In this document: piece by piece, positions 8,026-28,857 of the stretch | How positions within the stretch are numbered: the stretch's first letter is position 1 | How the letters are laid out: every line of letters begins with the position of its first letter | DNA from: a virus | Lineage: Duplodnaviria > Caudoviricetes | DNA: 64,000 nucleotides | Virus record (IMG/VR): IMGVR_UViG_3300036833_000232 | Location: 34,662 to 98,661 of that record | Strand: one strand, 5' to 3' | Notes under the pieces: generated by a model | Database searches by the model: none | Told to the model about the DNA's origin: nothing | Seen by the model: the letters and a program-made list of their open reading frames with translations, nothing else | Program-made: the position numbers and the translations under genes

Positions 8026-8046
8026 CGGCGCGCCGAGGGGGTCGCG

Positions 8047-12543: not shown

Positions 12544-12556
12544 CCGGGAGGCGGGC

Positions 12557-13818: not shown

Positions 13819-13899
13819 CAGAGTTCCGTTCGTTTAGTGTTGCTCTGTTTGGTTTACTGAGGTGAGGGTCGTCAACTCCCCCAGACGGCGGCCCACCGT

Positions 13900-13958
13900 G
13901 GGGCCCTCCGCGTTCCCTGGGACATTTCTCCCGGGTTGAGCGCGGAGGGCCCCTTTTT
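13900..13958 (+). terminator. Intrinsic terminator of the late operon
   Basis: 13-bp perfect stem GGGGCCCTCCGCG/CGCGGAGGGCCCC followed by TTTTT. Confidence 0.75.
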
Positions 13959-13990
13959 GCGTCTCTGCATCTGCTTTACTTGCGGGCACG

Positions 13991-14854
13991 GTGTGTGTCT
14001 ACGTGTGGCATGAGGGTGTGGTGGGGTTGGAGTTGTGGTCCACGACGAGGATCGCCGCGGCGGCGCGGGTCTCCACCGGGCAACTCGCCGCGGCGAGCCT
14101 TGACTTGCCGGGGTTGCAGCCGGTGGCGAGGGTCGGCGCCAGTACCGGGTGGCGACCCGAGCATGCTCCGCTGCTCGCGGCGTGGGTCGCCGGCCAGCCG
14201 GTCACGGTCCCAGTCCTGGACGAGCCGCTGGTGGTGTATTTGTCGATTGGTGAGGTCGCCGACCTGATGGGCATCCCCTACCAGACGCTGCGGGCCTCGG
14301 TGTATCGGCACCACCGGCGCGGCACGAAATCCAACTGCCCTGTCCCCGCGCCGGATGTGTGGATCCAGGGGGCTGATGGCCACATGGTCGCCGGGTGGCT
14401 GCCCGCGCGCCGCGCCGAACTGCAACGGTGGGCGGCACCCGTCGAACCGCCACCGTCCGATGCAGTGGACACGCTGGACCTGGTCGGAATCCCAGAGATC
14501 GCCCACCGGGTGGGGGTGCAACCCCGGGAGGTCCGCGATTGGTACAACACCCACTCACTGGCCGACGGGGCCGACCAGTTCCCGGCGCCGGACGCACGCA
14601 CCACCATCACCCGCGGCGGACACACCGTTGTCGAGCCCGGATGGGCACCGGAGCGGGTCGAGGTGGTGGTGGCGTGGTGTCGCGCGTTGCGGGAGCACCG
14701 CCGCCGGGAGAACCCGCGCCGCACATCGCAGGACATTCAACGGTGGCGCGCCGGGGGCCTGTCGTGGCGGCAGATCGCCGAACGAACCGGCCTGTCCACC
14801 CGCGGAGCGCGGATGCTGCATGACAAGACCAGCGGGGAGGAATCTGGGGAATGA
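13991..14854 (+). CDS. DNA-binding protein with repeated MerR/Xis-like wHTH units and a C-terminal HTH
   Basis: Two units (IGEVADLMGI...PAPD...GW; IPEIAHRVGV...PAPD...GW) plus 'GLSWRQIAERTGLS'. Confidence 0.6.
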   Translation: MCVYVWHEGVVGLELWSTTRIAAAARVSTGQLAAASLDLPGLQPVARVGASTGWRPEHAPLLAAWVAGQPVTVPVLDEPLVVYLSIGEVADLMGIPYQTLRASVYRHHRRGTKSNCPVPAPDVWIQGADGHMVAGWLPARRAELQRWAAPVEPPPSDAVDTLDLVGIPEIAHRVGVQPREVRDWYNTHSLADGADQFPAPDARTTITRGGHTVVEPGWAPERVEVVVAWCRALREHRRRENPRRTSQDIQRWRAGGLSWRQIAERTGLSTRGARMLHDKTSGEESGE

Positions 14855-15220: not shown

Positions 15221-15568
15221 TCACGCCGCCTCGCGGTGTTGGTTCCGTAGACGGCTGCGTTGCCCGCCAGTCATGCCGGCGGCGACACCCGGCCGGGGCA
15301 TCTCCGGCATGGTGGTTTCCCACCGCAGCACATCACCCTGACACTGCCGCCGCACCGGGCAGCCCGCGCACACCTGTTGGGCTTCGGCGTTGCGCCTCCG
15401 CGACCCGGAGAAGAACAGTTCGTGGCCGGCGGTGCGGCAGGCGGCGGCGTCGAACCAGGCGGGCGGGTCGCCGCCGGTTTCTGGCCACAGCGTCAACGCC
15501 AACGCCAGCCAGCCCTCACCGGCGTCGCCGATGGCCGCGATCAGCGGATCGGTTTCTGGGTGTCCCAC
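15221..15568 (-). CDS. whiB: WhiB-family transcription factor (copy 1)
   Basis: W..AAC...ELFF...AQQVCAGCPVRRQC...GVAAG...R. Confidence 0.85.
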   Translation of the reverse strand: MGHPETDPLIAAIGDAGEGWLALALTLWPETGGDPPAWFDAAACRTAGHELFFSGSRRRNAEAQQVCAGCPVRRQCQGDVLRWETTMPEMPRPGVAAGMTGGQRSRLRNQHREAA

Positions 15569-15576
15569 GGGGGTTC

Positions 15577-15849
15577 TCACCCGTCCTGGCAGGGATGCCG
15601 TGGATCGAAGATGACGGTGTTGAAGTCGGGGCCGTCGTTGTTGGCGGGGCTGGTGGGGTCGTAGCCCCACTGGTCCCCGTTCGGGCAGGCCCCGCACACC
15701 CAGCCCGGGTTACAGGCGGGGTTGCTGTTTGCGGCCGGGGGTGTGGGGACACCCTGCTCGGGGGTGGTGGTGATCGGCGCACACGCGGCACCGGTGAGTA
15801 CCCCGGCGAGCACCGTGGCGACAGCCAGGACAGTTCGCGCAGAGGTCAT
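15577..15849 (-). CDS. Small Cys-containing lipoprotein
   Basis: Signal peptide ending LTGAAC; strong RBS. Confidence 0.6.
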   Translation of the reverse strand: MTSARTVLAVATVLAGVLTGAACAPITTTPEQGVPTPPAANSNPACNPGWVCGACPNGDQWGYDPTSPANNDGPDFNTVIFDPRHPCQDG

Positions 15850-15896
15850 GGTGTTCTCCCTTTCTGTGGTGGTGGTTTGGGTGGCTAGTTCTGGGG

Positions 15897-16268
15897 TTAC
15901 ACGTTCCAGACTTTGTTCGGGTCGACGTGGTCAAGCAGCCGAGTCATGTAGTCAGGGATTGCGGCTCGCTGTTCGTCGGGCATCGGCGACACCAGCAATT
16001 CGGCGGCACCGATCTGTGCCGCCCGCTCGGCGACCCATGCCAACAATGCCGTCTCGTCGTTGAATTGTGGGCATTGTGGGATCTCCCGCAGTCGCGGGTG
16101 TTGCTCGAACAACCACTGGGCACATGCGGCGTCCACGCCGAGACTGTGCGACGGGCCGGGAACGGGCGCGCCGCTGATGAATTCCAGGATCTCCTGGTAG
16201 TCGTTGAAGGATGAGGGCAGGTGGTGGGTGACGGCGAGAACAACGTCAAGCCGGAAGGTGCGCGTCAT
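15897..16268 (-). CDS. Hypothetical phage protein
   Basis: AAGGA RBS; globular composition. Confidence 0.6.
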   Translation of the reverse strand: MTRTFRLDVVLAVTHHLPSSFNDYQEILEFISGAPVPGPSHSLGVDAACAQWLFEQHPRLREIPQCPQFNDETALLAWVAERAAQIGAAELLVSPMPDEQRAAIPDYMTRLLDHVDPNKVWNV

Positions 16269-16384
16269 CGGAACTTGGTCCTTTCGTTTCAGGGGGCTGC
16301 CAGTCAATTGTTGGGGACGCGCTGCGTCCCGGTCGGGGTTGCCACCTGTCATTGCTGGTTTCCTCGCGCCTTCTTTGTCGGTAG

Positions 16385-16867
16385 CTACCACCGGTGGCGG
16401 TGCCGGAAGCCGGTGCAGTATGGGCACAGCAGGTCGTCATCGTCGGTGTTGCGCCAGCCGTGTCCGGCCAGCCGGGAGAACTCGGCGATGATCCGGTCGG
16501 CGGGGATGGCGGCCCGCTCCCCGCAGTTCGGGGTGTGGCAGACGAGATGCAGGACCTTCAGGTCCTGTCCGTGGCTGTGCAGGTAGCAGGTGTTGATGCG
16601 GCCGTCGGTGGTGCCGCCCCAGCCGTGCTCGCGCATCACTCGTACGTCGCGCTGGGCGGTGAACCGGGCGATAGACGCGATCGGTGCCGGGGATGGTTGG
16701 TGGTCGAGTGATTCGCAGTGCACGGTGATGGTGTCGAGGTAGCGCTGCCCGGGCCGGTCCCGGCTGTCCCTGTTTGGCTGGTCGCGATTACGCCGCCAGC
16801 GGCCGTGCCATTCTCCGGCCCCGATCCCCAGCGCGAGGGTGGCCAGGTATCCCCACACGTCGCTCAT
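16385..16867 (-). CDS. Hypothetical protein (N-terminal hydrophobic segment, CxxxxC/CxxC)
   Basis: GGAGAGG RBS. Confidence 0.5.
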   Translation of the reverse strand: MSDVWGYLATLALGIGAGEWHGRWRRNRDQPNRDSRDRPGQRYLDTITVHCESLDHQPSPAPIASIARFTAQRDVRVMREHGWGGTTDGRINTCYLHSHGQDLKVLHLVCHTPNCGERAAIPADRIIAEFSRLAGHGWRNTDDDDLLCPYCTGFRHRHRW

Positions 16868-16981
16868 ACCCTCTCCGTTCACCTTGATCGCAGTTCTTGC
16901 TCTATCCAGGGGGCGCGGGCGAATAGCGCACCGGGTGAGGCCACTGTGCGATTATCGCCAATTTTTGCTTTCCTTTCTGGG

Positions 16982-17593
16982 TTAGTATCCGACGTATTTC
17001 CTGCCCGCGTGCACGGCGATCACCCCGGGCACGTTGTCGAGTGAGCCGTAGGTGGCCTCGGCGTAGCGTGTCCCGGCGATGATGTTGGACACCGGGTCGT
17101 CGATGTTGGTGTCGTAGCCCGGGCGCAGGGCGTAGGTGGCGAACACGCTGGGGATGGTCTGCATCAAGCCCTGGGAGGGGTGGCCGGCGGCGGCGTTGGA
17201 GTCCCATGTGTTGATCGTGTTCGGGTTCCCGCCGGATTCGCCTTGGATGATGATGATCAGGTCGGCGGTGTCGCTTGGCGTGAACGCGGGGTGGCCGTGG
17301 GTGGCCATGATCTGTTCGGCCTGGGCGATCCACTGCTGGACTTGAGCGGATGTTGCTGGCGTGCCGGTGGCCTGCCCGCTCCCGCCGACGGCCGCGGCGA
17401 TCCCCACCGTGCCGCCGATGGCGGTGACAGTGACGCCGATCAGTAGGGCGAGCAGTCCCCGCTTCCGGCTGTCCCCGGGGTGGGGAGCGCGGGGAGTGCA
17501 GTGGGGACCGTGGTGGGGAGTGGGTGCCCGGCCGGGTCGGGGCCGGGTGGGGAGTTGCGGGGATGTGCGGATGACGAGTGGGGACCGGGCCAT
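16982..17593 (-). CDS. Membrane-anchored lytic transglycosylase (SLT/GH23)
   Basis: ESGGNP..IN.WDSNAAAGHPSQGLMQTI...DPVSNIIAGTRY..ATYG; TM; AGGAG RBS at ATG 17593. Confidence 0.9.
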   Translation of the reverse strand: MARSPLVIRTSPQLPTRPRPGRAPTPHHGPHCTPRAPHPGDSRKRGLLALLIGVTVTAIGGTVGIAAAVGGSGQATGTPATSAQVQQWIAQAEQIMATHGHPAFTPSDTADLIIIIQGESGGNPNTINTWDSNAAAGHPSQGLMQTIPSVFATYALRPGYDTNIDDPVSNIIAGTRYAEATYGSLDNVPGVIAVHAGRKYVGY

Positions 17594-17633
17594 GGTGGGT
17601 GCTCCTAGCTGGCGGGGACTGTGGTGGGGAGTG
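17482..17633 (+). repeat. Array of GGGGAGTG 8-mers (clt/TRS-like, left array)
   Basis: Exact copies at 17491, 17515, 17626; variants at 17482, 17503, 17549, 17580, 17614. Confidence 0.65.
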
Positions 17634-18245
17634 AGATCGGCGCGTGGGCGCGTTGATGGACCTGCGGGTAGGGTCCGCCAACGCTGCACCGGGTGGGGCG
17701 TGTGGGTTGCGGTGCGTGAGTGGTGCCTGCGCCGAAGCTGCTGCGGTGCGGGATGGCACCACAGTTGACGTTGATCACTGGAGGCGATAGCTGGCCTGGG
17801 CGCGGTGGCTGCCCCTCTCCCCCGTGTTGACCCGGTGGAGGGGTGGTTGGCCTGCGATGACCACGCTTGATCGTCACGTGTGGTGACGGTGATCCCGGTG
17901 GTGTTAGACTCGGTCTCGCGGGCATGCGCGCATGCGCGCGTAGGGTGTCCTCGGGGCGGGAGAGCGTGGGAAGTTACCATGGGAAGTTCCCACCCGCCGG
18001 TCACCTTCCGTGACGAGTGGATGTGGGTCCTGCGGGCCGCTTGAACTACCGTGCACTCTCTCGCCGAAACCGGGCGAATCGGACACGGTGCACCCAGGCT
18101 GGGGTGTCGCGGCGAACCGCCCGCAGGGTCACGCATTGCACCGCCGAGTAAGGGTGTCCTAACCTGACCGAGAGTAGGGTTGGCGGCGTGAGCGCTCCGC
18201 CGATATGTCCGGCGGACCAGCTGGGCACCACTGCGGATCCCCACC

Positions 18246-18411
18246 CACTCCCCACCGCTGGCGGTCAGGGCCGGACCAGGCGATCCCCGCCCACACTCCC
18301 CGGAGACACCCACTCCCCACCTGCACTCCCCACCATTCCCCGGCCTGCATTCTCCACCCGGGGACCGCGCGAGCGGGGGGAGGGGAGTGGCGGATTCCCC
18401 ACCCGCTCCCC
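18246..18411 (-). repeat. Array of the same 8-mer in opposite orientation just downstream of traB (putative clt)
   Basis: CACTCCCC at 18246, 18294, 18311, 18324; variants at 18334, 18348, 18393, 18404; one inverted copy at 18382. Confidence 0.75.
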
Positions 18412-18414
18412 GCC

Positions 18415-20490
18415 TCATGCCGCCCCCACCCGGGTGGGGATCGACTCCCACTTCCCGTGCCCGCAGTCGCGGACCTCCTCATTGCCGGCCGCACGACGCA
18501 GCGCCTGTGACACCACGGACAGCTCGAATCCCAGGGCGGCGGCCAGTTCCCCGGTGGTGGACCGTCCCCGCCGGGCCAGCTCCGTCACGATCGCGGCCTT
18601 CTTCGTGACCGAGGCGTCTTCGGGCTCTTCGACCGCGATCGTCAGCGGCAGCGGCACCAGTTCCGCGACCCGATCGGTCAAATCCGCCCACGGGTTGGCC
18701 GCCCGGGCCAGTACAGCCGCAGGGGTGCCGCTGGGCAGGCCGAGGCGTCGGGTCTGCTTGTAGGTCTCCAACGCGATCCGGGCGTCGGCCATCGACTGCT
18801 CCGGGCTGCGGTGCGCCTCGGCGATGTAGGCACCCAGCGCCAGCTCACCGACCTCGTCATCACCCCACGGCTCGTTCGGCAGCGCCCGCGCCCACGGCGA
18901 CATGTCCTGCGTGAAATCGGTGCGCAGCATCGCGGCCCGGTTGCTGCCAGCCGCCCGCAAATACGCCCAGCCGCCGTCGGTGGGCAACGTGTAGGGTGCC
19001 ATCGTCGGACCGTTGATCAGATTGTGGGCGTATTTCGAGCTGGTGTAGAAACACACCACATTGCGGGACGTCAGAATATCTCGCAGGGTGGAATTACCGG
19101 CGAAATCCAGATTCAAATCCAGGCCCTGGGTGGCACACCACACCGCCACGCCTTTTTTCCGGCCGAGTCGGACGACAATTTCCAGTTCTTTCGCGAAGTC
19201 TTGGTCGGCCTTCAACAGTAGGTGCAGTTCGTCAATGATCCACAGGAGGCCTTTGCGGGCGGGGGAGGGGTTGACTCCGCGCACGTCCTCCGGCAGTGCG
19301 GCGTTCTCGATACCGCGGCCGGTCATGTACTCCTTGACCGCTGCCAGCTGCGCCCAGGCCCCCGTCAGGCCGTAGTCGGAGGCGGTCATGTAGTTGCTCA
19401 GGATCGGGGAGGAGTCGTTGTCGATGGAGCCGTCGTTGTAGAGCACCTTCCACCGGCGGCTGTGCAGCGCGGACATGCCCAGGTTCTCCAGGAACACGGA
19501 CTTGCCGGAGCCGGGGTCGCCGGTCACCAACCCGTTGATGACGGTGGCGACGTGGTCGGTCAGTTGCACCGACCCCCAGCCATCGCCATCGGCGTAGGGG
19601 CCGGACGCGACGTAGCCGTTGTCGTAGCGGGGCCCGGTGTAGGCCACCCCGTCTTTGAGGGGGTTGGTGGTCAGAAACGAGATCAGTCCGCGGGAGTAGT
19701 CGCCGTCGGGGTGCAGTTCGATCACGATGTCGGCGGGGGCCAGGCCCATCACGCCAGCGATTTTGGGACGGGCGGGGACCAGGTCATCGAAGGTGTTGTG
19801 GTCAGGGTCGAGAACGATCTCGAACGCCCACCCAGTCGCGAGTTCCCGCTCACCCGCGAGTATCGAGTGGGCGAATTTTTTGCCCTTCGCGGACAAGAAT
19901 GTTTCCCAGCGTTCCACAATCCGGTCGGCGCCAGTGATCGGCGCGGCCAGCACCTCGTCCTCAGTGTCTTCATCCTCGTCCGCGGCGGGCAGTTGCGACG
20001 GAACCGGGCCGGCGACGATGCGGTGGTCCTGCCACCAGCGGCCAGCGAGGGTGACGGTGGTGCCGGCGAGCGCGCCGGTAAGCAGCCAGCCGGGGGTGGT
20101 ACCGGTGTCGAGGACCGCAGCGAGGGTGGACCAGAGGGTGGCGGTGGTGCCGGCGAGCCAGAACCGCAGACTCCACCGGTGGGTGAACACCGTGCGCAAT
20201 GCCCCGTAGCGGGTGAGGTACATCGCGCCGGTGGCCAGGGCGGCGGTGGAGGCACCGACCGCGAGGGGCTGGTGCGCGGCCATTTCGATCAGGTGAGCGC
20301 ATTCGCCGTAGGCCCAGGTGCCCGCGCCGGCGAGGTGGGGGGCGACCATGGCGCGCTGCCAGCGGGACACGCGGAACGCTCGGTCGGCGGCCGCGTACTG
20401 CGCGAGCGCGTCTTCGTGGGAGACCGGCACGACTTCAGCACCAACAGGCGTGGTGGTTTCCTGTGGTGGTGCGATGGCTTCGGTGCCCAC
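18415..20490 (-). CDS. traB: FtsK/SpoIIIE-family conjugative DNA translocase (actinomycete TraB type)
   Basis: N-terminal TMs, Walker A GDPGSGKS, Walker B WIIDE, RLGRKKGV..ATQ, C-terminal winged helix (STTGELAAALG...VSQALRR). Confidence 0.88.
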   Translation of the reverse strand: MGTEAIAPPQETTTPVGAEVVPVSHEDALAQYAAADRAFRVSRWQRAMVAPHLAGAGTWAYGECAHLIEMAAHQPLAVGASTAALATGAMYLTRYGALRTVFTHRWSLRFWLAGTTATLWSTLAAVLDTGTTPGWLLTGALAGTTVTLAGRWWQDHRIVAGPVPSQLPAADEDEDTEDEVLAAPITGADRIVERWETFLSAKGKKFAHSILAGERELATGWAFEIVLDPDHNTFDDLVPARPKIAGVMGLAPADIVIELHPDGDYSRGLISFLTTNPLKDGVAYTGPRYDNGYVASGPYADGDGWGSVQLTDHVATVINGLVTGDPGSGKSVFLENLGMSALHSRRWKVLYNDGSIDNDSSPILSNYMTASDYGLTGAWAQLAAVKEYMTGRGIENAALPEDVRGVNPSPARKGLLWIIDELHLLLKADQDFAKELEIVVRLGRKKGVAVWCATQGLDLNLDFAGNSTLRDILTSRNVVCFYTSSKYAHNLINGPTMAPYTLPTDGGWAYLRAAGSNRAAMLRTDFTQDMSPWARALPNEPWGDDEVGELALGAYIAEAHRSPEQSMADARIALETYKQTRRLGLPSGTPAAVLARAANPWADLTDRVAELVPLPLTIAVEEPEDASVTKKAAIVTELARRGRSTTGELAAALGFELSVVSQALRRAAGNEEVRDCGHGKWESIPTRVGAA

Positions 20491-20579
20491 GATGGTCCTC
20501 CCTCCGTGACTGTGGCAATGCGGGTGCGGTGCCTGGCCCCCCGTTCAGCGTCTGCTGGCGCGGGAGGCCAGGCGGTGGG

Positions 20580-20894
20580 TCAGCCCAGGTAGTTGTTGTT
20601 GGTGCCCGCGCCGGAGGCCTTGACGTGCTCCTGCGCGGCCTGGTGCGCCTCGTAGTGGGCTTTCATCTGCTCGGCCAGGCCCTTGGCCGCGGAGAGGTGG
20701 TTGAGTATTTCCGTGGTGGTAGAGACCTGGGACTGGTCGATGTTCGCGCCGGCGGTCCCGACCGAAGCGATGTTCGCCTGGACGCGGGACTCGGCAGCGG
20801 CGAACACCTCGATCAGGCCGCTGGTGAACGTGATCCCGCGCTCGGGGTTGGTGACCTCGCCGCTGGCCAGGGTGAGGCTGCCGGAATCGGCCAT
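20580..20894 (-). CDS. Small helical transfer-region protein
   Basis: GAAGGAG RBS; directly upstream of traB. Confidence 0.65.
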   Translation of the reverse strand: MADSGSLTLASGEVTNPERGITFTSGLIEVFAAAESRVQANIASVGTAGANIDQSQVSTTTEILNHLSAAKGLAEQMKAHYEAHQAAQEHVKASGAGTNNNYLG

Positions 20895-20963
20895 GGTGTG
20901 TGCTCCTTCGGGTGGGTTGCGCACGCCGCCTCCATGGTTGGGGGCGGACAACTTGGGGGTGGG

Positions 20964-21542
20964 TTATTCGGTGGTGGTGATCTCGATCGGGGCGGCCTCG
21001 ATTGCCTTCGGCTGATCCGCGCGGATCGCCGGCACCCGGATCAGCGGCCGGGCGGGGGCTGCGGTCTCGGTGTCGACCCGCAGGCTGTCGTTGTCGGTGG
21101 TGACGACGCGGGGGCGGCTGGCGAACCGGCGGGCGGCCCGCGAGACGATCTGGTGCCGCTTGTGGGCCCACCACTGGCGGGCGTTGCGCCACGCGAGCCG
21201 CCACACACCGGGGGTGCGGCCGCGGCGGACGTCGTCGTCTTCCCGCTCGATGCGGACCTCGTCCGCGCGGGTGGCGCGGCGGCCGGCGTTGGCGACCCAT
21301 TCGGCGATGCGGCGCTGTAACGCCTGCCGGATCATGCCGCCCTGGGCGCGTTGCTCCCGCAGCGCGGCGTGGCGGGCCATCCACTTCTCATGGCCGTGCC
21401 GCATCCGCTGCATGCGTTCCTCGTGCCGGTTGTTCGACCGGTGCGGGGTGTTGCCGCGGGCGGAGGCGACACCGTCGATGCCGTCGGAGACGAGAAAACC
21501 GATCGTCAGGCACAGCAGGAAAACGAACGTGAACGGGTCCAC
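20964..21542 (-). CDS. Membrane-anchored basic protein (transfer region)
   Basis: N-terminal TM, Arg-rich; tightly packed in the operon. Confidence 0.6.
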   Translation of the reverse strand: MDPFTFVFLLCLTIGFLVSDGIDGVASARGNTPHRSNNRHEERMQRMRHGHEKWMARHAALREQRAQGGMIRQALQRRIAEWVANAGRRATRADEVRIEREDDDVRRGRTPGVWRLAWRNARQWWAHKRHQIVSRAARRFASRPRVVTTDNDSLRVDTETAAPARPLIRVPAIRADQPKAIEAAPIEITTTE

Positions 21543-21545
21543 GGC

Positions 21546-21956
21546 TTAGGCTCCGATGAGGCTGAACAGCGGCGGGAACAGTCCGAGCGCGGCGGGCGCG
21601 AGGAACGCGACCCACGGGGTGTAGCGGCGGATCCCGCTGCCCCACTTCGGCGCCATATGGAAGATCGTGATGGCCACGAGTGCCAGGCCGATGCACCACG
21701 GCAGCGCGGTGGTCGCCGCGTGCGCCCCGGTGAGCAGCCAGCCGGGGCCGTGGGCGTGGGTGGCCAGGTCGGTGAGTTTGGCCAGGCCGTAGTGCAGGGC
21801 CTGGGCGATCAGGGCGGCGAACCCGATACCGGCCAGCAGCATCAGGAACGCGTGCACCCATTCCCAGTTCACGCGCTGGATGTTCGGATGGTGCTTGAGC
21901 ACCACCCAGGCCAGTACCGCGAACACCAGCCCGGTGGCGGCGGATCCCCAGATCAT
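21546..21956 (-). CDS. Four-TM membrane protein, Spd-like
   Basis: Highly hydrophobic; GAAAGGA RBS. Confidence 0.65.
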   Translation of the reverse strand: MIWGSAATGLVFAVLAWVVLKHHPNIQRVNWEWVHAFLMLLAGIGFAALIAQALHYGLAKLTDLATHAHGPGWLLTGAHAATTALPWCIGLALVAITIFHMAPKWGSGIRRYTPWVAFLAPAALGLFPPLFSLIGA

Positions 21957-21981
21957 GATGGTTCCTTTCTGTGAGTGTCGA

Positions 21982-22554
21982 TCACCAGGCGGTGATGTTG
22001 AGGAGAGTTGGAATCAGGCCGCCCAGGACGGGGACCTGTGCGATACCGGTGCCGATCAGCAGCGCGGCGGCGGTGACGGTGCACAGCCGGGTGAACCGCT
22101 GCGTCACCCATTTGGTGGTGTCGCCGACCACGGCGAACGCAGTGACGACCGCGGCCCACCCGGTCGCGGCGTAGCGCTGGACCGGGTGTGCCGAGATGCC
22201 CCACTCGGAGGTGCGGATCCGCGCCCACAACTCACCCGGGGTGCGGGGATGGTTGATGGCCTGCCCAAGCCCAACGGTGGGGCAGGCCACCCATTTTGCG
22301 GTGTCGACCGCGACACTGATGGTGATCGCCCCGACCGCCCACAGGCACGCGAAGACCCGTTTCGGTCCGCCGGTCGCGGTGGTCCATTCGCCGCGGCGGG
22401 CGTGATCCCAGATCTCGGCGGGAGTGTGCGGCACGGTGACCGCCTCAGGCAGGGTGATCGCGTCGACCGCTTCGTGGGCCAGCGTCACCAGGAGGGATCC
22501 CCGTGGCTGCTCGCCCTGCCTGGTCGGGGGAGCGTCGTTGTCGGTGGTGGTCAC
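21982..22554 (-). CDS. Membrane protein with an internal duplication, Spd-like
   Basis: Two units P.TP.E.W...R..EW...W......V.DT.KWV. Confidence 0.6.
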   Translation of the reverse strand: MTTTDNDAPPTRQGEQPRGSLLVTLAHEAVDAITLPEAVTVPHTPAEIWDHARRGEWTTATGGPKRVFACLWAVGAITISVAVDTAKWVACPTVGLGQAINHPRTPGELWARIRTSEWGISAHPVQRYAATGWAAVVTAFAVVGDTTKWVTQRFTRLCTVTAAALLIGTGIAQVPVLGGLIPTLLNITAW

Positions 22555-22823
22555 CGGGTTTCCTTCCGTTTCGTGCCGGACAACAGGGCGTCGGCCTCGG
22601 CGCGCAGCGTCTTGGCCAGGTCCCGGATGGCGTGGTTGAGGCGCGAACTGTCGCCGCGGTGGCGGCGAACCGCGCCGCGGAAGTAGTCGTAGGCGGCACC
22701 CAGTTCGTCCAGGGCGGTTTTCGCGCCGCGGGTTTCGGTGACAAGTTGTTTACGGCGGTTGACCGCCCGGGCCGCGATCTGCCGGGCCGGGGCTTTACCG
22801 CGGGAGCGGGGTTGTCCGGCCAT
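22551..22823 (-). CDS. Small basic helical protein
   Basis: Overlaps both neighbours. Confidence 0.6.
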   Translation of the reverse strand: MAGQPRSRGKAPARQIAARAVNRRKQLVTETRGAKTALDELGAAYDYFRGAVRRHRGDSSRLNHAIRDLAKTLRAEADALLSGTKRKETR

Positions 22824-24055
22824 CAGCCGACCCCCTTCGCCTGGCCACGGTCCTGCTGGCGCGGGTCGCCGAAGTCGCGGAAGTAGCGGCTGATCGCGTT
22901 CTTCGCGGTGCCGGTGTAGCTGCCGGACATGGCCACGTCGACCGCCCGGTACGACAGGGGGTTGTCGGGGTTGGCCTGGTAGCTGGCGAGCCAGCGGGCG
23001 ACCGCTTCGGCGGACTTCTCGCCGTACTTACGGACCAGAGTCAAATCCAGCACGGGCCGGGGAGTGCCCTCCAGGTTGATTTCCGCTGTCTGCTCCGAGG
23101 CGCGCGCCGCCGCGGCGGCCGGAGCGGCCGCGGGTGGGGTGGCCAGCGGGGCGGGGGCCGGCTTCGGTTTCGCCGTCGGGGCCACCACTTTGGCCTGTTT
23201 GGTGGCCACCGCGTACGGCGAGGGCTGCCGGATCGACGCCAGATCCTGGGCGTGCTGGATGACGCCGATGTGGTTGACCAGCCGGATCATCAGCGTGTCG
23301 TCGTCGGCGACACCCGCTTTGATCACCGCGCGTTCCAGGCGGGACTGCCGGAACGGGGTCCGTTTGCTGGCGGTGGCCAGCCGGGCGGCCTGCATCAGCG
23401 CCCGGTCCCGGGTGCGGGCGGCCGCGTCGCGGGCATCGTCGGCCAGGCCGATCCGCGACAGTGCCCGCTCGCGCATCTCGTCCGCGACCCGCGCCCAGGT
23501 GGACTTTTTCTTGCTGCGGCCGTGCCGGTTGTGGATTTCGATACCGAGGGCCTGGTGCAACATGACCATCGCGAACACCGGCCCAGCCAGGACCCGGGCG
23601 AGGCCTTCGACCGGGCCGGCCTCGACCAGGGCGGCGTAGGCGGCGAACCCGCACAGCGCCCACGCGATCATCCGGGCCGTGCCGGGGGAGGCCGGCTCAC
23701 CTTCCGGGGTCTTGCGCCGGACGTTGGTGCGCATCCCGTAGGCGCACGCCAGCAGTCCGACCTCGATCAGCGCGAACATGCCGACCCGTTCGATGCCGAC
23801 GATGTGCAGCTTGTCCCCGAAAAACCGGAACGAGGTGTCGGCCGACAGGGCGATCCCGAGTGCCCCGGAGAAGTAGTAGCCGAGGTTGGCGCGGGAGGCG
23901 CGTTGTTCGTCGGTGACCGGGGCGGTGTGCCGCCCGGCCCGGGTCCTTTTCGCGGCGAGCACCATCAGCAGGACCGCCACCGCTGCTGCGATGCTCAGCA
24001 GTAGAACACGGTGGGCGACGACCCAGCCGAGCACGAGCGTCGTCACGCTGGTCAT
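22823..24055 (-). CDS. SpdB-like multi-TM plasmid spreading protein
   Basis: ~5 TMs (SADTSFRF...ERVGMFALIEVGLLACA...RVLAGPVFA), Arg-rich middle, Pro/Ala linker, C-terminal helical domain. Confidence 0.6.
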   Translation of the reverse strand: MTSVTTLVLGWVVAHRVLLLSIAAAVAVLLMVLAAKRTRAGRHTAPVTDEQRASRANLGYYFSGALGIALSADTSFRFFGDKLHIVGIERVGMFALIEVGLLACAYGMRTNVRRKTPEGEPASPGTARMIAWALCGFAAYAALVEAGPVEGLARVLAGPVFAMVMLHQALGIEIHNRHGRSKKKSTWARVADEMRERALSRIGLADDARDAAARTRDRALMQAARLATASKRTPFRQSRLERAVIKAGVADDDTLMIRLVNHIGVIQHAQDLASIRQPSPYAVATKQAKVVAPTAKPKPAPAPLATPPAAAPAAAAARASEQTAEINLEGTPRPVLDLTLVRKYGEKSAEAVARWLASYQANPDNPLSYRAVDVAMSGSYTGTAKNAISRYFRDFGDPRQQDRGQAKGVG

Positions 24056-24179
24056 GCGGTGGCCTCCTGGCGGGTGGTTGTGGTGGTCATGCGCGCATCT
24101 TTAACCGATGGGGTGTACGAGCCGGGCAGTGACACGGCTGGGATGTAGACCCGACCGGACACTGTCCGCAGTGTCCGGT

Positions 24180-24572
24180 TCAGTCGTCGGGTTTGTGGGC
24201 GATCCCCGACGCGGATCCGACCAGGCTCCCCATCCCGTTAACGATCTCGGCTGCGGAACGCAGGCAGTGAGAACCGCCGAGCTCGGTGACAGTGCAGTGG
24301 ACACTGTTGTGGACGATGATCCGGAATTTGATGCCCATCTTCTGGCCCCGCACGGCGATGTCCTCGGCCGTTTGGATGGCGTGCGGGTAGTCAAAAATCC
24401 CCGCCCGGGCATCCACGACCAGCCGGATCAGCTGGCCGTGCTCGATGGTGTCGAAATAGGGTTTCCTGTCGACTTTGGCCGACGATTCCCGGGACGTCAG
24501 TTCGGCGTGGACCTTCTGCAACAGGCCCATCTCGTGCTGCACGGTGCTGTTCACTTCGGCACTCCGTTTCAC
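24180..24572 (-). CDS. Truncated, degenerate TraB/FtsK ATPase-core homolog
   Basis: Aligns by eye to TraB: LVVDA vs WIIDE, VRGQKMGI vs RLGRKKGV, LGGSHCLRS vs FAGNSTLRD; no Walker A. Confidence 0.5.
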   Translation of the reverse strand: MKRSAEVNSTVQHEMGLLQKVHAELTSRESSAKVDRKPYFDTIEHGQLIRLVVDARAGIFDYPHAIQTAEDIAVRGQKMGIKFRIIVHNSVHCTVTELGGSHCLRSAAEIVNGMGSLVGSASGIAHKPDD

Positions 24573-24588
24573 GTAGTGGAGAACTGGA

Positions 24589-25152
24589 TCAACGAGCCCA
24601 GCGCTTCGAGGCGTCCCGATCCCGGCGTTCCTCGTCCCGGTCGTCGGCCCAGTCGATGACGGTGCGGTAGAACTCCGCAGCCGGTCCTCCGAGCGCCCAC
24701 GGAACGAAGATCAGCAAAGCGAAGACGCCGAGCAACGCCGGCGGCCAGACAAAGACCAACCAGACCCAGGTCCCGAACATGACCGGTGTCCCCACGAGCA
24801 CGCCATAGAGCAACTTCCGCCTAGTGCTCACCCGCGGTGGGGGTGGCAACACCACCGGTGGCGCGGCTGGCCACCGGGTTTCCAGCGCCGGCGCCGAGGT
24901 CGGCGATTGCAGGGCAACAGGCACGTCACCCGAGTTCGGCTTGCTGGTGGACTTCATGTGCCCGCATCCTCTTTCCGTGTCTTTTTCACCAAACGGCGTT
25001 CCCGTTCGGACATTCCTCCCCAGATGCCAAAGCGCTCGTCGTGCGCGAGCGCGTATTCCAGGCACTCGGAAGAACTCCTCGTACTCGGCGTCGTCCATAT
25101 CCTCGCCGGTCATTCCCGCGGCGGAGGAGGGGGCGCTGAACTGGTCGCGCAT
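24589..25152 (-). CDS. Membrane protein (2 TM)
   Basis: C-terminal hydrophobic hairpin; start uncertain. Confidence 0.5.
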   Translation of the reverse strand: MRDQFSAPSSAAGMTGEDMDDAEYEEFFRVPGIRARARRALWHLGRNVRTGTPFGEKDTERGCGHMKSTSKPNSGDVPVALQSPTSAPALETRWPAAPPVVLPPPPRVSTRRKLLYGVLVGTPVMFGTWVWLVFVWPPALLGVFALLIFVPWALGGPAAEFYRTVIDWADDRDEERRDRDASKRWAR

Positions 25153-25457
25153 CACATCCCCCCGGTGAGTTGGTGGTAGACGTAGTTGACGATCACTTCG
25201 GCGGAGTGGGAGCAGTCGATGAGGATCCCGGACTCCTGGATTCGGCGGGCGACGGTGCCGAGCAGGTCGTGGGCGGCGATGGCGGTGTTGACGTGGTCGA
25301 TGAGGTCGGCGGGGACCGGGTCGGCGAGGTTGAACACCCGCCCGATACGGTCGATCAACTCGTCCTGGCGGGGGATCGGCTGGGGCGGGTAGCTGGCGTA
25401 GAGGTGGGCCGGCATGTCGCCGCCGGGGCCGACACCGTGGGGGGTTGTCACAGCCAT
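25152..25457 (-). CDS. Hypothetical protein
   Basis: Coupled start/stop overlaps. Confidence 0.55.
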   Translation of the reverse strand: MAVTTPHGVGPGGDMPAHLYASYPPQPIPRQDELIDRIGRVFNLADPVPADLIDHVNTAIAAHDLLGTVARRIQESGILIDCSHSAEVIVNYVYHQLTGGM

Positions 25458-25669
25458 GCCACCCCTTCCGGGGTGAACCGGTCACGGAAAGTGGACGTCG
25501 GCGACTGGCCGGCACCGGTGCATGCCGGTCGTTCGGTGGCGTAACCAACCGTCGGGCCGGGGGCGACGGGGTGCGCGGGGATACGGCCGTCGGTGACGGG
25601 GTAGTCGCCGGCGCAGTCGGGGCAGACGCCGCGGAGGCGGTCGTCCGCGAGGAGGGTTCCGGTGGCCAT
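25448..25669 (-). CDS. Small Zn-finger-like protein
   Basis: CPDC...H...C. Confidence 0.55.
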   Translation of the reverse strand: MATGTLLADDRLRGVCPDCAGDYPVTDGRIPAHPVAPGPTVGYATERPACTGAGQSPTSTFRDRFTPEGVAWL

Positions 25670-25914
25670 CACACCCACCCCTTGTCGGCGAGGTGCCAGC
25701 GCCCGGCGGGGGTGATCTCGCCCGTGGCGGTGACCAACGCATCCTGCTTGAGTTCGCGGTCCACGATCTGGCCGTTGCGGGCGAACAAGTCCGGGTTGTA
25801 GGTGCCCTCTGCGGCGTCGGCCAGGTGTTCCAGGTGCAACGCGGTCAGGTAACGGCCGGACAGGGTCGAGTAGCCGAATTCGGGGTGCCTACTGGGCTGT
25901 GGGTTGGTGGCCAT
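25669..25914 (-). CDS. Small winged-helix-like protein, tandem paralog 3
   Basis: Ends ITPAGRWHLADKGWV. Confidence 0.65.
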   Translation of the reverse strand: MATNPQPSRHPEFGYSTLSGRYLTALHLEHLADAAEGTYNPDLFARNGQIVDRELKQDALVTATGEITPAGRWHLADKGWV

Positions 25915-26174
25915 CACGGGCACCATCCCGCCATCGTCAGGGCTTCCCGGCCGAGGTCGGTGATCTGCCAGTTACTGTCCAGTAGCCCGTCGCGCTGCAA
26001 GGCGTCCATCAGGGCGCGGTCGGCGGGGTCGGTGGTGGTGTAGGCGCGGCGGGTGAGGTCGGTGATCAGGTTCGCCTCGTCCACCACGTCCAGGTGCTCA
26101 TCGGTCAGGACCAGGCCACCGGGGGCGAAGACGTAGGCGACACCGTTGATCGTTTCGCAGTGCAACTCGCCCAT
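25914..26174 (-). CDS. Small winged-helix-like protein, tandem paralog 2
   Basis: Ends ITDLGREALTMAGWCP. Confidence 0.6.
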   Translation of the reverse strand: MGELHCETINGVAYVFAPGGLVLTDEHLDVVDEANLITDLTRRAYTTTDPADRALMDALQRDGLLDSNWQITDLGREALTMAGWCP

Positions 26175-26458
26175 CAGATCCACCCCCGATCGGACAGGTG
26201 CCACAGGCCGTCGCTCGTGATCACGTACTGGTCGGTGTCTGCGATACGGACCAGCAGGCCAGCGGAGGCGCATTCCTCGGCTGCGACAGTGTCGAACTCG
26301 TCGGTGAAGTCCACCTGGTAGGTGTCGTTCACGGACCGGGCTGCCTGATGCAATCGAGTCAGGTGATGCACGGCCAGGTAGAACCCCGCGAGAGTGGGGT
26401 AGCCGAACTGGTGGTCTCGGATCGAGGTCTTGGTGATATAGGCCGGAGTAGTGATCAT
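26174..26458 (-). CDS. Small winged-helix-like protein, tandem paralog 1
   Basis: Ends ITSDGLWHLSDRGWI; shares FGY.TL.G.YL with paralog 3. Confidence 0.65.
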   Translation of the reverse strand: MITTPAYITKTSIRDHQFGYPTLAGFYLAVHHLTRLHQAARSVNDTYQVDFTDEFDTVAAEECASAGLLVRIADTDQYVITSDGLWHLSDRGWI

Positions 26459-26850
26459 CACGCCACCTCCCGGCTCTCGCCAGTGGCGGGTTCCCACTGC
26501 TGAACGCGGGCCACTAGCAGCGCGGCGTACACACCGCGGCCGACGGCGAGGATCTCGGTGGCGGCTTTGTCCGCGTCAGCCGCCGGGACGTGCCGCAGCA
26601 TCGCGCGGATCGAGTCGAACACCGCCCGCACCGTTTCGGCGGGGGATTCGGCGGCGGCGACCCGCACATCGAGCGCGGCGAACCGGCGGATCAACTGCCG
26701 CACCGACCGTGGCTGGACCGGTTCGGTCGCGGCGGCGGCGAGCGCGTCACACAGGTCCGGGTCCGGTTGGGTGGGGTCGAGTTGCTGGTACAGGTCGTGG
26801 ATGGCGGCGGCCTGTACCAGGGTGGTGGGTTTCTCGGTGCGGACGTCCAT
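26458..26850 (-). CDS. Hypothetical helical protein
   Basis: TGATG coupling on both sides. Confidence 0.6.
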   Translation of the reverse strand: MDVRTEKPTTLVQAAAIHDLYQQLDPTQPDPDLCDALAAAATEPVQPRSVRQLIRRFAALDVRVAAAESPAETVRAVFDSIRAMLRHVPAADADKAATEILAVGRGVYAALLVARVQQWEPATGESREVA

Positions 26851-27083
26851 CACGCGGCACTCCAGACGCCCTGTGTGTAGTCGGTGGTGTTCGGGTCGGT
26901 GACCGGGAAGTGGAGGGTCGTCACGGTCACCGACCCGAAGTTGTTGAGGCGCGATGCGAACCGGGCGCGTTCCCGGTTCAGCCGGTCGGCGGTACCTCGC
27001 CGGCCCTTGTACTGCCGGGCGCGCATCTCGGCCTGGGCCAGACGCTGCTCGGGGGTGAGGGCCTGGCGGCGGCGGTTTCGCAT
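26850..27083 (-). CDS. Small basic protein, first gene of the leftward operon
   Basis: GAAAGGGAG RBS. Confidence 0.6.
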   Translation of the reverse strand: MRNRRRQALTPEQRLAQAEMRARQYKGRRGTADRLNRERARFASRLNNFGSVTVTTLHFPVTDPNTTDYTQGVWSAA

Positions 27084-27153
27084 CGCGCCTCTCCCTTTCT
27101 GTGGCGGGGGTGTTCCTTTTGTGGTGGGGTCTTTGGTATGGAGCTTGTTGACT

Positions 27154-27208
27154 TGGTACGTACCATAGACCGGGATGGCAGAGTACGCAACCTTTGGTAC
27201 GGTCCAAA
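27154..27208 (-). promoter_or_regulatory. Leftward promoter overlapped by GntR-type operators
   Basis: -35 TTGCGT (27185-27190), 17 bp, -10 TATGGT (27162-27167); palindromes TGGTACGTACCA (27154-27165) and TTTGGTACGGTCCAAA (27193-27208). Confidence 0.7.
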
Positions 27209-27235
27209 CCACAGCAGTCAAGCGAAGGGAGACAC

Positions 27236-28057
27236 GTGGCGGCCACTGCGCGATGGCAGGTCGTATATGACCACCTGCTCACCGGCATTGATCAGGGCGA
27301 ATACCCGCCTGATCACCAACTGCCGACCGAACGAGAACTCATGCGCCAATTCGGCTACGCACGCGACACCGTTCGACGCGCCTACGCCCAGTTGGAGCAG
27401 AAAGGCCTCGTCGTCGTTGGTGGCCCCACCGGTCGACGGGTACGCCAACCGGTCGAGTTGTACTTCGACGCGTCCAAATTCGAACGGATCTACACCGACG
27501 ACCCCGACCTCAACCGCGATCAGTGGAGCCAGGACGTCGCCGCGCAGGGCTGGGAGCACGACCAGACCCCAGTGGTGAACCACCTGCCCGCCACGCGGTG
27601 CGTTGCCCGCTGGCTGGACGTTGACCTGAAAACGCCGCTCATCCGACGCCGACGGCTCCGGCGCGTCCGACAGACACCAGCACAACCATGGAAGACGGTC
27701 GTTATCGCCGACTCCTGGTTTCCGCTGGACATTGCCCACCGCCAGGTCGACGGGTTGGCACCACTGCTGATGCAGCAGAACATCACGATGCGTGGCGGCA
27801 TCATCCGCTCGCTGGGGATCCGCCAGGAGATGTTCGTGGACGAGATCCGGGCCAGGATGCCGCACGACGACGAGACCGAACTGCTGGACTTGCTGCCGTA
27901 CACCCCGGTTCTGGAGTTCGCGCGAGTGGGAATCGACGATGCCGGCCGACGCATCCGGGTGATCGTCAACGTGTTGTCTTCCGACTCCCAGTACCTGAAA
28001 TACATCCTTGACGTGCCCCAACCGCAGGAACCCTCACCCGCCACGGAGGACATGTGA
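27236..28057 (+). CDS. GntR (HutC/UTRA) repressor, KorA/TraR-like
   Basis: YPPDHQLPTERELMRQFGYARDTVRRAY wHTH plus UTRA domain; divergent from the traB operon. Confidence 0.9.
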   Translation: MAATARWQVVYDHLLTGIDQGEYPPDHQLPTERELMRQFGYARDTVRRAYAQLEQKGLVVVGGPTGRRVRQPVELYFDASKFERIYTDDPDLNRDQWSQDVAAQGWEHDQTPVVNHLPATRCVARWLDVDLKTPLIRRRRLRRVRQTPAQPWKTVVIADSWFPLDIAHRQVDGLAPLLMQQNITMRGGIIRSLGIRQEMFVDEIRARMPHDDETELLDLLPYTPVLEFARVGIDDAGRRIRVIVNVLSSDSQYLKYILDVPQPQEPSPATEDM

Positions 28058-28848
28058 TCGACCCCATACCGCAGTACCGCATCCGCTACGCCACCAATCA
28101 GGATGTGTCCGCCGTCATCGGCCTGCGCGCACACGCCGAAATGTGGCTACACGCCGCCGGTATCGACCAATGGACGGTGCGGTCGACCGGGGAACGCAAC
28201 ATCCGGGACTCGATTGCGGCCGGTACCACCTACGTGGTCACCACCGGCGCCGGGGATGTCATTGGCAGCCTCGCTATGGATGCGGCTGACCTGGACTTTT
28301 GGACCCCGGCGGAGGCGGCGCAGCCCGCGATGTACCTGTACAAGTTCATGATCGGATCTGATCGGCGTGGCAGCGGGCTGGGCGAGGTCCTCCTTGACTG
28401 GTGTTGCGCTCGGGCGGAACTCCTCGGCGCACGCTGGCTGCGGTTGGACTGCTGGCGCACCAACGCCGCGCTGCACCGCTACTACCTGCGTCGCGGATTT
28501 CGACATGTCGCTACTCGGCAGGCACCGGGCCGTCAGTCGGGGGCACTGTTCGAGCGGCCGGTGGATACGCGCACGGCAGCGAACCCCCCGAAAGTGAACT
28601 TGATCGATGAGACGGTGCCGCTGTTCGAGCGGCCGAAGCCGGTCGGGACGGACCGGTATGACCCGATCGGTGAGGCGGCGATCTGGCAGGAGGCATCCAA
28701 CGTGGTTGAGGGGATGCGTCACCAGCCGTTGCCGAGCCCGGATTGGTCTGCGGCTCTCGATCAGGCGGCCCGGACGTTGGACTGCCGGGCGCGGGCGATC
28801 CGGCAGGCGCAGGGCATGTATTACCGGGTCATCGACGGACAGCGTTGA
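28054..28848 (+). CDS. GNAT acetyltransferase
   Basis: RRGSGLGEVLL...LRLDCWRTNAALHRYY...GF. Confidence 0.85.
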   Translation: MIDPIPQYRIRYATNQDVSAVIGLRAHAEMWLHAAGIDQWTVRSTGERNIRDSIAAGTTYVVTTGAGDVIGSLAMDAADLDFWTPAEAAQPAMYLYKFMIGSDRRGSGLGEVLLDWCCARAELLGARWLRLDCWRTNAALHRYYLRRGFRHVATRQAPGRQSGALFERPVDTRTAANPPKVNLIDETVPLFERPKPVGTDRYDPIGEAAIWQEASNVVEGMRHQPLPSPDWSAALDQAARTLDCRARAIRQAQGMYYRVIDGQR

Positions 28849-28857
28849 GAGGGACAC

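Follow-up and report, generated by a model that had tools for sequence, protein, structure and literature searches.

What does a tailed phage do with a long block of genes that lies beyond its tail operon, runs against it, and has the layout of a DNA transfer region of an actinomycete plasmid? The locus was analyzed in a stretch of 64,000 nucleotides (the window), which forms the last 64 kb of the 98,661-bp virus record IMGVR_UViG_3300036833_000232 (Duplodnaviria, Caudoviricetes; positions 34,662 to 98,661); positions below are those of the window unless the contig is named. Phages and conjugative elements are usually seen as alternative transmission strategies. To our knowledge, the plasmid-phage pZL12 is so far close to a single case of one element using both routes. 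It was reportedly described by Zhong et al. in 2010 (J Bacteriol 192:3747). For the present element, an original prediction made from the letters alone had claimed an apparently complete TraB-type conjugation module on a tailed phage. The block at 15.2 to 27.2 kb was deduced, with a probability of roughly two in three, to be an actinomycete-type double-stranded DNA (dsDNA) transfer or spreading module that forms a stable accessory region of a temperate-style tailed phage of ~98 kb, and the virus, by analogy with pZL12, may also spread from cell to cell without particles. The observations behind this deduction are the fold and family grouping of an ATPase, the architecture of the block, the clustering and conservation of short repeats, the operator-like symmetry at its promoter, and synteny with relatives.

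The translocase and the repeats beside it

The ATPase, of 691 aa, has one Walker A (GDPGSGKS) and one Walker B (WIIDELH) motif; GDPGxGKS and WIIDE are invariant in the alignment of its family, which is small (18 clusters, 40 to 57% identity). The AlphaFold model (AF2) had a mean predicted local distance difference test (pLDDT) value of 66, the core and C terminus being confident, and contained four long N-terminal helices (residues 25 to 156) and a winged helix of H-H-H-beta-beta topology (residues 624 to 683, pLDDT 83 to 87). Structural comparison matched the model to the alpha+beta motor of FtsK (Z 18.4, residues 184 to 559, 303 residues aligned, root-mean-square deviation 9.0), to TcpA, an FtsK-like coupling protein from conjugation (Z 17.5), and, more weakly, to EccC/EssC (Z 15.9), the last over the motor alone, from about residue 276 on. 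A sequence-profile search of the PDB gave a HerA-like match (E 4e-4) and weak winged-helix matches, and HTH_24 and MarR_2 scored above threshold in plasmid homologues of the protein. The FtsK-like translocase of the original prediction was upheld in its Walker motifs, its motor fold, and its C-terminal winged helix, while the transmembrane (TM) segments also claimed for it are plausible and not firmly shown.

The placement of this ATPase among related motors was deduced from profile comparison and from a tree. With hhalign, the family aligned to Tra of pSLE1 (Streptomyces leeuwenhoekii, NZ_LN831788) at 96.8% (E 2.5e-10) over 338 columns that include the pre-motor domain, and to TraA of SCP2, the "major plasmid transfer protein," at 95.3% (E 2.1e-8, 219 columns); the value for chromosomal FtsK was 12% (E 2.4e-3, 134 columns). 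A maximum-likelihood tree of motor domains (IQ-TREE) was built from 17 rows, with ten family members and the protein of pAmyja1, a 92.5-kb circular plasmid of Amycolatopsis japonica (NZ_CP008954), left out. One clade with support of 99/97 united the ATPase family with SCP2 TraA, pSLE1 Tra, proteins of Kitasatospora and Pseudonocardia plasmids, and the ATPase of the phage relative G002, whereas FtsK, an FtsK paralogue, and all three EccC domains fell outside it. The original prediction had named a phylogeny of TraB, septal FtsK, and EccC as its own check, and both the clade and the hhalign values favor TraB/Tra. There is thus good but not final support, at the level of sequence, for placing the ATPase with the plasmid Tra/TraB proteins, apart from septal FtsK and EccC.

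Database searches for close relatives among phages returned little. No match to the ATPase was found by tblastn in 50,697 phage records even at E = 1, nor by a single-protein scan of viral contigs, and tblastn of pSLE1 Tra against the same number of deposited phage genomes gave one marginal match only. In the Saccharopolyspora locus L008, a 185-aa open reading frame just downstream of the full ATPase gene (12246-12803) is a partial copy of the motor core, with 44% identity to residues 283 to 453 of the window protein. A small protein of the block itself, g078 (24180-24554), was considered as a mini-paralogue of the ATPase core and rejected (BLASTP E 8.4).

The second line of evidence is the repeat locus beside the ATPase gene. 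Of the 30 copies of the motif GTGGGGA present in the 98.7 kb, 12 are crowded into 17401-18434, within 1 kb after the ATPase stop codon. The plus-strand cluster is situated about 700 bp beyond the minus-strand cluster, and both converge across a gene-free core (Table 1). In an unbiased scan for short-repeat clusters, these two ranked highest on the contig, with k=7 as well as with k=8, which bears out the 8-bp repeat locus that had been claimed beside traB. A search of Rfam with the array/core region gave nothing credible.

The arrangement recurs where the DNA-reading end of the ATPase is the same. The ATPases of L061 and L062 are 54 to 56% identical to that of the window and have an identical C-terminal recognition-helix subtype, and the GTGGGGA motif, its position, and the convergent geometry are found in both loci. 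Islands of the core are conserved in a three-way alignment with L061 and L062, and the differences within the TGNGAAnTTCNCA palindrome preserve its symmetry, although a consensus fold made from only three sequences does not tell whether these are palindromes of the DNA or structures of an RNA. L006/G003 have another winged helix-turn-helix (wHTH) subtype and instead contain about 20 copies of CAACCGC inside the block. No comparable repeat cluster was found immediately after the ATPase genes of L006, L008, L025, L027, and L001, some of which have arrays elsewhere in the block; in G002, G003, and pSLE1, the highest-ranked array falls inside the transfer-like block. On pAmyja1 (L004, 1399-4790), a gene for a 737-aa, ATPase-like P-loop protein is followed at once by a 1.2-kb gene-free stretch full of CGGGGAC arrays, which suggests an analogous system of pump plus site.

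Sites termed clt (for a locus of transfer that acts in cis) are located at or after the 3' end of tra, and they are made up of 7- to 9-bp direct and inverted repeats that are bound by the wHTH of Tra (PMC3583192). The repeat locus fits this description, and its binding by the ATPase is predicted by analogy. Two arrays that converge on a conserved core go beyond what is described for clt sites. The pairing of a wHTH subtype with an 8-mer in convergent arrays offers a testable model for how a TraB-type pump chooses and orients its substrate.

Composition and predicted control of the leftward block

The block contains 22 leftward genes that extend from 27.2 kb to 15.0 kb, divergently from a gene for a GntR+UTRA protein. 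The leftward block of ~12 kb that had been claimed beyond the tail genes was recovered with its elements in, or close to, their expected places; the features are collected in Table 1.

Table 1. Features of the leftward block and its surroundings (positions in the window)
Feature	Positions	Strand	Evidence or remarks
Tail tape measure protein, 1087 aa	2408..5671	+	PHROG, best E 5.3e-66; 38% identity to pAmyja1 tape measure
Three holin-like small membrane proteins, end of late operon	12557..13818	+	1 to 4 predicted TM segments each
Helix-turn-helix (HTH) protein between late operon and block	14021..14854	+	Weak HTH_23/MerR matches; same-position homologues in G003 and G002
WhiB-type regulator, distal gene of block	15221..15568	-	Pfam Whib E 5e-13
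Three small genes: secreted/lipoprotein-like 90 aa, DUF7736 protein, Cys-rich 160 aa	15577..16867	-	DUF7736 E 2.6e-6
Membrane-anchored lytic transglycosylase, SLT domain, 203 aa	16982..17593	-	Pfam SLT E 5.7e-11
Distal array, 6 GTGGGGA, directed at core	17401..17640	+	Overlaps 5' end of SLT gene
Gene-free core, ~600 bp	17641..18237		GTCACG..GTGAC inverted repeat, tandem TGNGAAnTTCNCA palindromes, GCGCGCATGCGCGC alternating palindrome
Proximal array, 5 GTGGGGA, directed at core	18238..18440	-	Starts at and overlaps ATPase stop codon; candidate clt/TraB recognition sequences
TraB/Tra-type FtsK-superfamily translocase, 691 aa	18415..20490	-	Helical N terminus, alpha-like domain, single RecA-type motor, C-terminal winged helix
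192-aa TM+basic protein (g073) and 104-aa helical protein (g072)	20580..21542	-	Directly upstream of ATPase
4-TM protein, 136 aa (g074); ~3-TM protein, 190 aa (g075); basic 90-aa protein	21546..22823	-	TM scan; candidate spread/channel partners
Integral membrane protein, 410 aa (g077), cytoplasmic C-terminal domain	22823..24055	-	At least 3 TM segments; SpdB2-like position and size
Nine small promoter-proximal genes, one with 2 TM segments	24180..27084	-	Gene calls
Divergent promoter/operator region, 151 bp	27085..27235		Perfect palindrome TGGTACGTACCA (27154-27165); two half-sites TTTGGTA (27132, 27193)
Repressor of GntR/HutC type that includes a UTRA effector domain; placed like TraR/KorA	27236..28057	+	Pfam GntR E 4.5e-15, UTRA E 5.6e-9
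GNAT acetyltransferase and PP2C-like protein, co-transcribed with GntR	28054..29802	+	Pfam Acetyltransf_1; homologues in G003, G002, and pAmyja1 (annotated PP2C)

Beyond the gene-free ~0.8 kb that follows the ATPase gene lies the gene for the lytic transglycosylase, and the sequence agrees with the membrane anchor claimed for its product: an N-terminal hydrophobic anchor appears when translation starts at ATG 17593. Homologues 52 to 55% identical adjoin the ATPase in G003 and G002. WhiB genes likewise accompany the ATPase in L006, L008, L062, and pFRP1-1.

On the upstream side, the TM scan predicted five membrane proteins (20964-21542, 21546-21956, 21982-22554, 22823-24055, and 24589-24957). 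The counterpart of g073 and g072 in L006 and L008 is one protein of ~400 aa directly upstream of the ATPase. In the window, the two genes share one frame and are separated by a single stop codon (20964-20966) that is followed by an ATG; a genuine split, a nonsense mutation, and read-through are all possible. For g074, g075, and the basic 90-aa protein no family was found in Pfam, NCBIfam, or PHROG, and g075 is kept in L006 and L008. A PGWLLTGA-type segment is common to g074 (21546-21956) and the N-terminal helical region of the ATPase, with a 41-nt DNA repeat of 85% identity at 20055-20095. The larger protein g077 has a counterpart with 41% identity in L006, and its C-terminal domain is homologous to the position-equivalents in L062 (E 2e-22) and L061 (E 2e-10); DUF2637 matches 4 of 12 position-equivalents but not g077 itself. 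The nine promoter-proximal genes gave no family matches; two of their products, g082 and g084 (25669-26461, minus strand), are paralogues with 35% identity. No relaxase or type IV secretion apparatus was found, within the sensitivity of the libraries used (Pfam, NCBIfam, and PHROG for the block and Pfam for the other proteins).

The control region matches the divergent GntR/UTRA gene with candidate operators in the block promoter that had been predicted, both in its Pfam domains and in the palindrome and half-sites at 27132-27207. The first leftward gene probably starts at ATG 27084, and the intergenic length of 151 bp presumes this start. The pattern TGGT-N4-ACCA occurs only twice on the contig, and a palindrome of the same type recurs on the Kitasatospora plasmid, likewise in the GntR intergenic region. 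A divergent GntR gene is found at the ATPase block also in pSLE1, the Kitasatospora plasmid, L008, and L062, and a GntR homologue with 63% identity stands at the same place in G002. In pSVH1, TTTGGTACACAACT repeats between the divergent traR and spdB3 genes are the binding sites of the GntR-type TraR, and spdB3-spd79-spdB2-orf108-traB are believed to be under its control (PMC4447253). Because the present gene is co-linear with a GNAT/PP2C operon common to the relatives, it may be a backbone regulator rather than a dedicated TraR and may regulate more than transfer. A stand-alone UTRA domain without an HTH is encoded at 33473-34009 (plus strand, Pfam E 6e-11), is conserved in G003 and G002, and has 26% identity to the effector half of the GntR protein; it may serve the GntR switch as an anti-repressor or as a sink for the ligand.

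A sequence of events is proposed from these elements. The GntR/UTRA repressor would bind the TGGTACGTACCA palindrome and the half-sites and silence the long leftward operon until a ligand signal triggers its expression. The ATPase would then assemble into a membrane-associated, FtsK-like hexameric pump whose C-terminal winged helix recognizes the GTGGGGA 8-mers just after its own gene, these acting as a clt/TRS (TraB recognition sequence) site. The pump would drive the element, double-stranded and unprocessed, across the membrane and out by an opening that the anchored SLT transglycosylase cuts in the wall, and the polytopic membrane proteins g073 to g075, g077, and g079 would form a channel or spreading complex comparable to that of the Spd proteins in pSVH1. 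It is inferred that the wHTH binds DNA, that GntR represses the operon, that the phage genome is pumped, and that any transfer between cells takes place.

The carrier genome and its maintenance

The contig is a complete tailed-phage genome of ~98 kb, in line with the tailed-phage carrier of the original prediction. A 197-bp direct repeat links its ends (contig 1-197 and 98465-98661, with one mismatch at position 127, within a gene for 92 aa), and it was deduced from this that the element closes on itself at ~98.46 kb and is circular or terminally redundant; the IMG/VR topology entry reads "linear." The self-trained gene call gave 146 genes, and the completeness estimate of CheckV was 95%. PHROG profiles identified the large terminase (TerL), portal, minor head, and major head proteins upstream of the window, and these, with a tail tube homologue and the tape measure, complete a virion and packaging set. 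The late operon to the left of the block looked intact, as claimed, from the tape measure to the holin-like genes, for which no Pfam family was found.

Its relatives point to an actinomycete source. The virion module is common to pAmyja1 (terminase 69%, portal 67%, head 64%, and tail tube 52%), and the viral contigs G003 (102.9 kb) and G002 (104 kb) are collinear with the genome throughout, with a DnaB of 82% identity. More distant relatives by head genes are Catenulispora genomes and one Streptosporangiaceae metagenome-assembled genome (MAG); megablast of the block and tail region against plasmid and phage collections gave no match. With a guanine-plus-cytosine (GC) content of ~67% and relatives from Amycolatopsis, Saccharopolyspora, and Pseudonocardia, the source organism is likely a high-GC actinomycete, and Streptomyces is not a likely host.

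How the genome is maintained bears on whether it could behave as a plasmid. The DnaB (38549-39895) and the DnaC/IstB-like loader (31808-32467) of the original prediction were both found, and neither is plasmid specific. The claimed lack of an integrase holds for the window, but the contig codes outside it for a tyrosine recombinase with a SAM-like N-terminal domain (contig 4494-5546), homologues of which occur in G002, pSLE1, and pAmyja1; this leaves integration possible. Neither ParA (AAA_31) nor ParB_N was found on the contig or in its Pfam inventory. Because no ParA/ParB was found and a recombinase is present, the plasmid-prophage state proposed earlier is weak, the lone hint of it being that pAmyja1 is a circular plasmid.

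Downstream of dnaB, a gene-free gap of ~700 bp (37841-38548) has, besides a perfect hairpin of 13 bp (38133-38165), three half-sites GTACCA; inspection of the gap showed no clear iterons, and it may be an origin or a regulatory region. Upstream of the window and beside the terminase, a PAPS-reductase-like protein (PHROG E 6e-76; contig 19537-21962, minus strand) has as its neighbor a homologue of a pAmyja1 protein annotated "ParB N-terminal domain," to which the ParB_N model of Pfam gave no match; the two look like accessory proteins for DNA modification or packaging, not like partition proteins. Among the virion genes, a ~100-aa N-terminal module (57 to 62% identity) is common to three proteins (contig 13095-14660; window 5704-6249 and 8047-10842) whose C-terminal parts are unrelated, which resembles an interchangeable virion-attachment domain, and the tail-tip genes include one for a BNR/sialidase-like beta-propeller protein (7024-8025, plus strand; BNR_2 E 3.5e-20). 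A further pair of small paralogues, g090 and g091 (36% identity), follows the PP2C gene at 30015-30682 (plus strand).

Alternative explanations and comparison with known systems

One explanation, which the original prediction had itself raised in part, is that the block is foreign to the phage: either an assembly chimera of phage and plasmid or a separate insertion bounded by ends of its own, be it an AICE (actinomycete integrative and conjugative element) or a piece of a plasmid. It would account for the near absence of PHROG matches among the block proteins apart from the SLT domain, for the presence of the ATPase family on Pseudonocardia plasmids and a Saccharopolyspora contig without the head or portal genes of this phage, and for its absence from the more distant relatives G004, Catenulispora, and the Streptosporangiaceae MAG. 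Nevertheless, ATPase+SLT blocks occupy the same site in the collinear G003 and G002, between the tail genes and the GNAT/PP2C genes of the GntR/GNAT/PP2C region (ATPase identity to the window protein 52% and 25%, respectively), the block of L061 is convergent with phage holin and GH25 genes, and GC content is uniform across the junctions. Pfam scans found no integrase, excisionase, recombinase, or Rep gene inside 15.0 to 27.2 kb, and no convincing att-like direct repeats flank the block. A 22-nt repeat at 15855 and 27090 was rejected as an att pair: both copies are ribosome-binding leaders, and one is inside the block. Because the block stands at the same place in two collinear relatives and lacks a recombinase, a Rep gene, and flanking repeats, a chimera or separately integrated AICE is unlikely, and a foreign origin of this kind was given hardly any weight. 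It was concluded that the module is exchangeable between elements, yet a stable accessory region of the phage lineage. It is also very improbable that the block moves no DNA at all and codes for a protein-export ATPase like EccC (type VII related), or that the SLT enzyme and the small membrane proteins form a lysis cassette. The motor does align with EccC at 93.9%, next to the structural match cited above; however, the ATPase has a single Walker A and motor where EccC has three, its FtsK and TcpA matches cover the alpha domain while those to EccC begin at ~276, EccC domains fall outside its clade, and it carries a C-terminal winged helix with an adjacent cognate array. No WXG100 or other family of type VII secretion systems (T7SS) was found by Pfam and NCBIfam scans. 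As to lysis, there is no classical endolysin beside the holin-like genes, and the Gly/Ala-rich anchor of the SLT protein recalls signal-anchor-release lysins. The enzyme need not be a lysin, however, because the phage has a separate holin-like set after the tail genes and another endolysin candidate, an Rv2525c-like glycoside hydrolase (contig 7368-8366). SLT and ATPase genes are linked in G003 and G002, and the block is transcribed from the opposite strand, its promoter being repressor controlled.

More serious, though still unlikely, is a use of the same machine inside one mycelium, where it would move the phage or prophage genome across septal cross-walls or partition it into compartments or spores in place of ParAB, and not serve conjugation. 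A variant of this proposal is modeled on KOPS (FtsK-orienting polar sequences) and dif, with the 8-mers steering the pump to the core and the tyrosine recombinase, acting like Xer, resolving dimers there. The failure to find ParA and ParB_N on the contig, the convergence of the arrays on a conserved core as of KOPS on dif, and the presence of the tyrosine recombinase with its SAM-like N-terminal domain all agree with it. Nevertheless, the partners of the ATPase in the tree are plasmid transfer proteins instead of septal FtsK, the recombinase gene is ~45 kb distant and has no homologue that could be found in G003, and no Xer site resembling dif was recognized in the core. The proposal is also not exclusive, as TraB of Streptomyces serves both transfer and spreading.

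The reading of the block as a dsDNA transfer module has to be set against several findings that weigh on the other side. The ATPase is under all curated Pfam and NCBIfam thresholds (FtsK_SpoIIIE 19.7 bits against a cut-off of 24), its N-terminal helices are moderately hydrophobic (Kyte-Doolittle peak ~1.0 to 1.1), its motor-only similarity to EccC by hhalign (E 1.5e-7, 205 columns) about equals that to the Tra proteins, and the motor-domain tree has few taxa and long branches. L008 shares the wHTH subtype of L006, yet no CAACCGC array was found within 22 kb. The membrane genes, called Spd-like in the original prediction, qualify by topology and position, but no homology of their products to named Spd proteins was detectable in Pfam, NCBIfam, and PHROG scans. 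A GntR homologue was not detectable in G003, an SLT enzyme is outside the described minimal Streptomyces system, and mycelial growth of the host is an assumption. On balance the transfer reading is partly supported: the identity and integrity of the module are supported, whereas its completeness, a conjugative function, and a plasmid state are unproven.

A wider proposal is put forward tentatively, and we consider it rather less probable than the transfer reading itself. A lineage of ~100-kb phages of soil actinomycetes, comprising this contig, G003, G002, L061, and probably pAmyja1, may stably keep a TraB-type pump with 8-mer arrays that converge on a conserved core of ~600 bp in the manner of KOPS on dif. 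If true, the pump would give the lineage a second, particle-free route, from cell to cell or from compartment to compartment.

Among known systems, the chromosomal FtsK/KOPS/dif machinery shares with the block the fold of its alpha/beta motor, a winged-helix DNA reader, and oriented 8-mers that converge on a central site. It differs in that the present ATPase is outside the FtsK clade, the core has no demonstrated Xer site, and the whole is on a mobile element and under a repressor. EccC/EssC have three tandem FtsK-like ATPase domains and T7SS partner genes, as against one motor and no T7SS families here. The plasmid pAmyja1, which exists in circular form in an isolate, is alike in its virion module, its GntR + PP2C pair, its tyrosine recombinase, and its ATPase-like gene followed by short-repeat arrays; its 737-aa protein, however, can be aligned to the ATPase family only marginally and is not detectably related beyond the P loop (hhalign 7.8%), and counterparts of the genes of the 12-kb block are lacking.

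The TraB/clt/TraR/Spd systems of pSVH1, pIJ101, SCP2, and pWTY27 have a single FtsK-like motor with an N-terminal membrane part and a C-terminal wHTH, short 7- to 9-bp repeats at the 3' end of tra, a divergent GntR repressor with a TTTGGTAC-type operator, and upstream polytopic membrane proteins that include one of ~400 aa; relaxase and type IV secretion are not involved. The original claim of a module of this type stands for the architecture, the grouping with Tra, and the repeat site, the Spd assignment being one of topology and position. In contrast to these systems, the present module is carried by a virus, its ATPase belongs to a distinct small subfamily below the Pfam FtsK threshold, SLT and WhiB genes are added, no sequence homology to named Spd proteins was detectable, and the arrays form two convergent clusters around the conserved core.

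The nearest precedent is pZL12, which is cited in PMC3583192 and PMC4487206 as a Streptomyces plasmid-phage with a mapped transfer locus. As cited there, its transfer and virion production were shown experimentally, whereas the present element is a metagenomic virus contig. Like pZL12 and its homologue pSLE1, the element combines, at a size of ~86 to 98 kb, a full tailed-virion module with a GntR-fronted operon of many small genes, and it has a protein of ~375 to 410 aa and a Tra ATPase of ~700 to 775 aa right beside structural genes (in pSLE1, this layout, with a ~375-aa protein, adjoins the terminase). The ATPases of pSLE1 and the window are homologous and in the same clade, related at the profile level only. 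The phage backbone, however, is independent, with no structural genes in common; pSLE1 has ParA/ParB (PMC4487206), which were not found here; and the present block is set apart by its SLT transglycosylase and by arrays that, right behind the ATPase gene, converge on a conserved core. The precedent named in the original prediction applies to the Tra ATPase and the layout, on an unrelated phage backbone. A large phage-plasmid census sought conjugation genes with CONJscan, that is, by relaxase and mating-pair formation (MPF) genes, and does not mention Streptomyces (PMC7969092). Such a search would miss a relaxase-free system, so that dual-route elements in actinomycetes are probably underestimated, and if the wider proposal is true, a class of hybrids is systematically overlooked by screens of this kind. 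The combination known from pZL12 is now seen on an unrelated phage backbone, with relatives in several non-Streptomyces actinomycete families and at a fixed genomic position, which suggests that the pairing of phage and transfer module arose or was exchanged more than once and is maintained.

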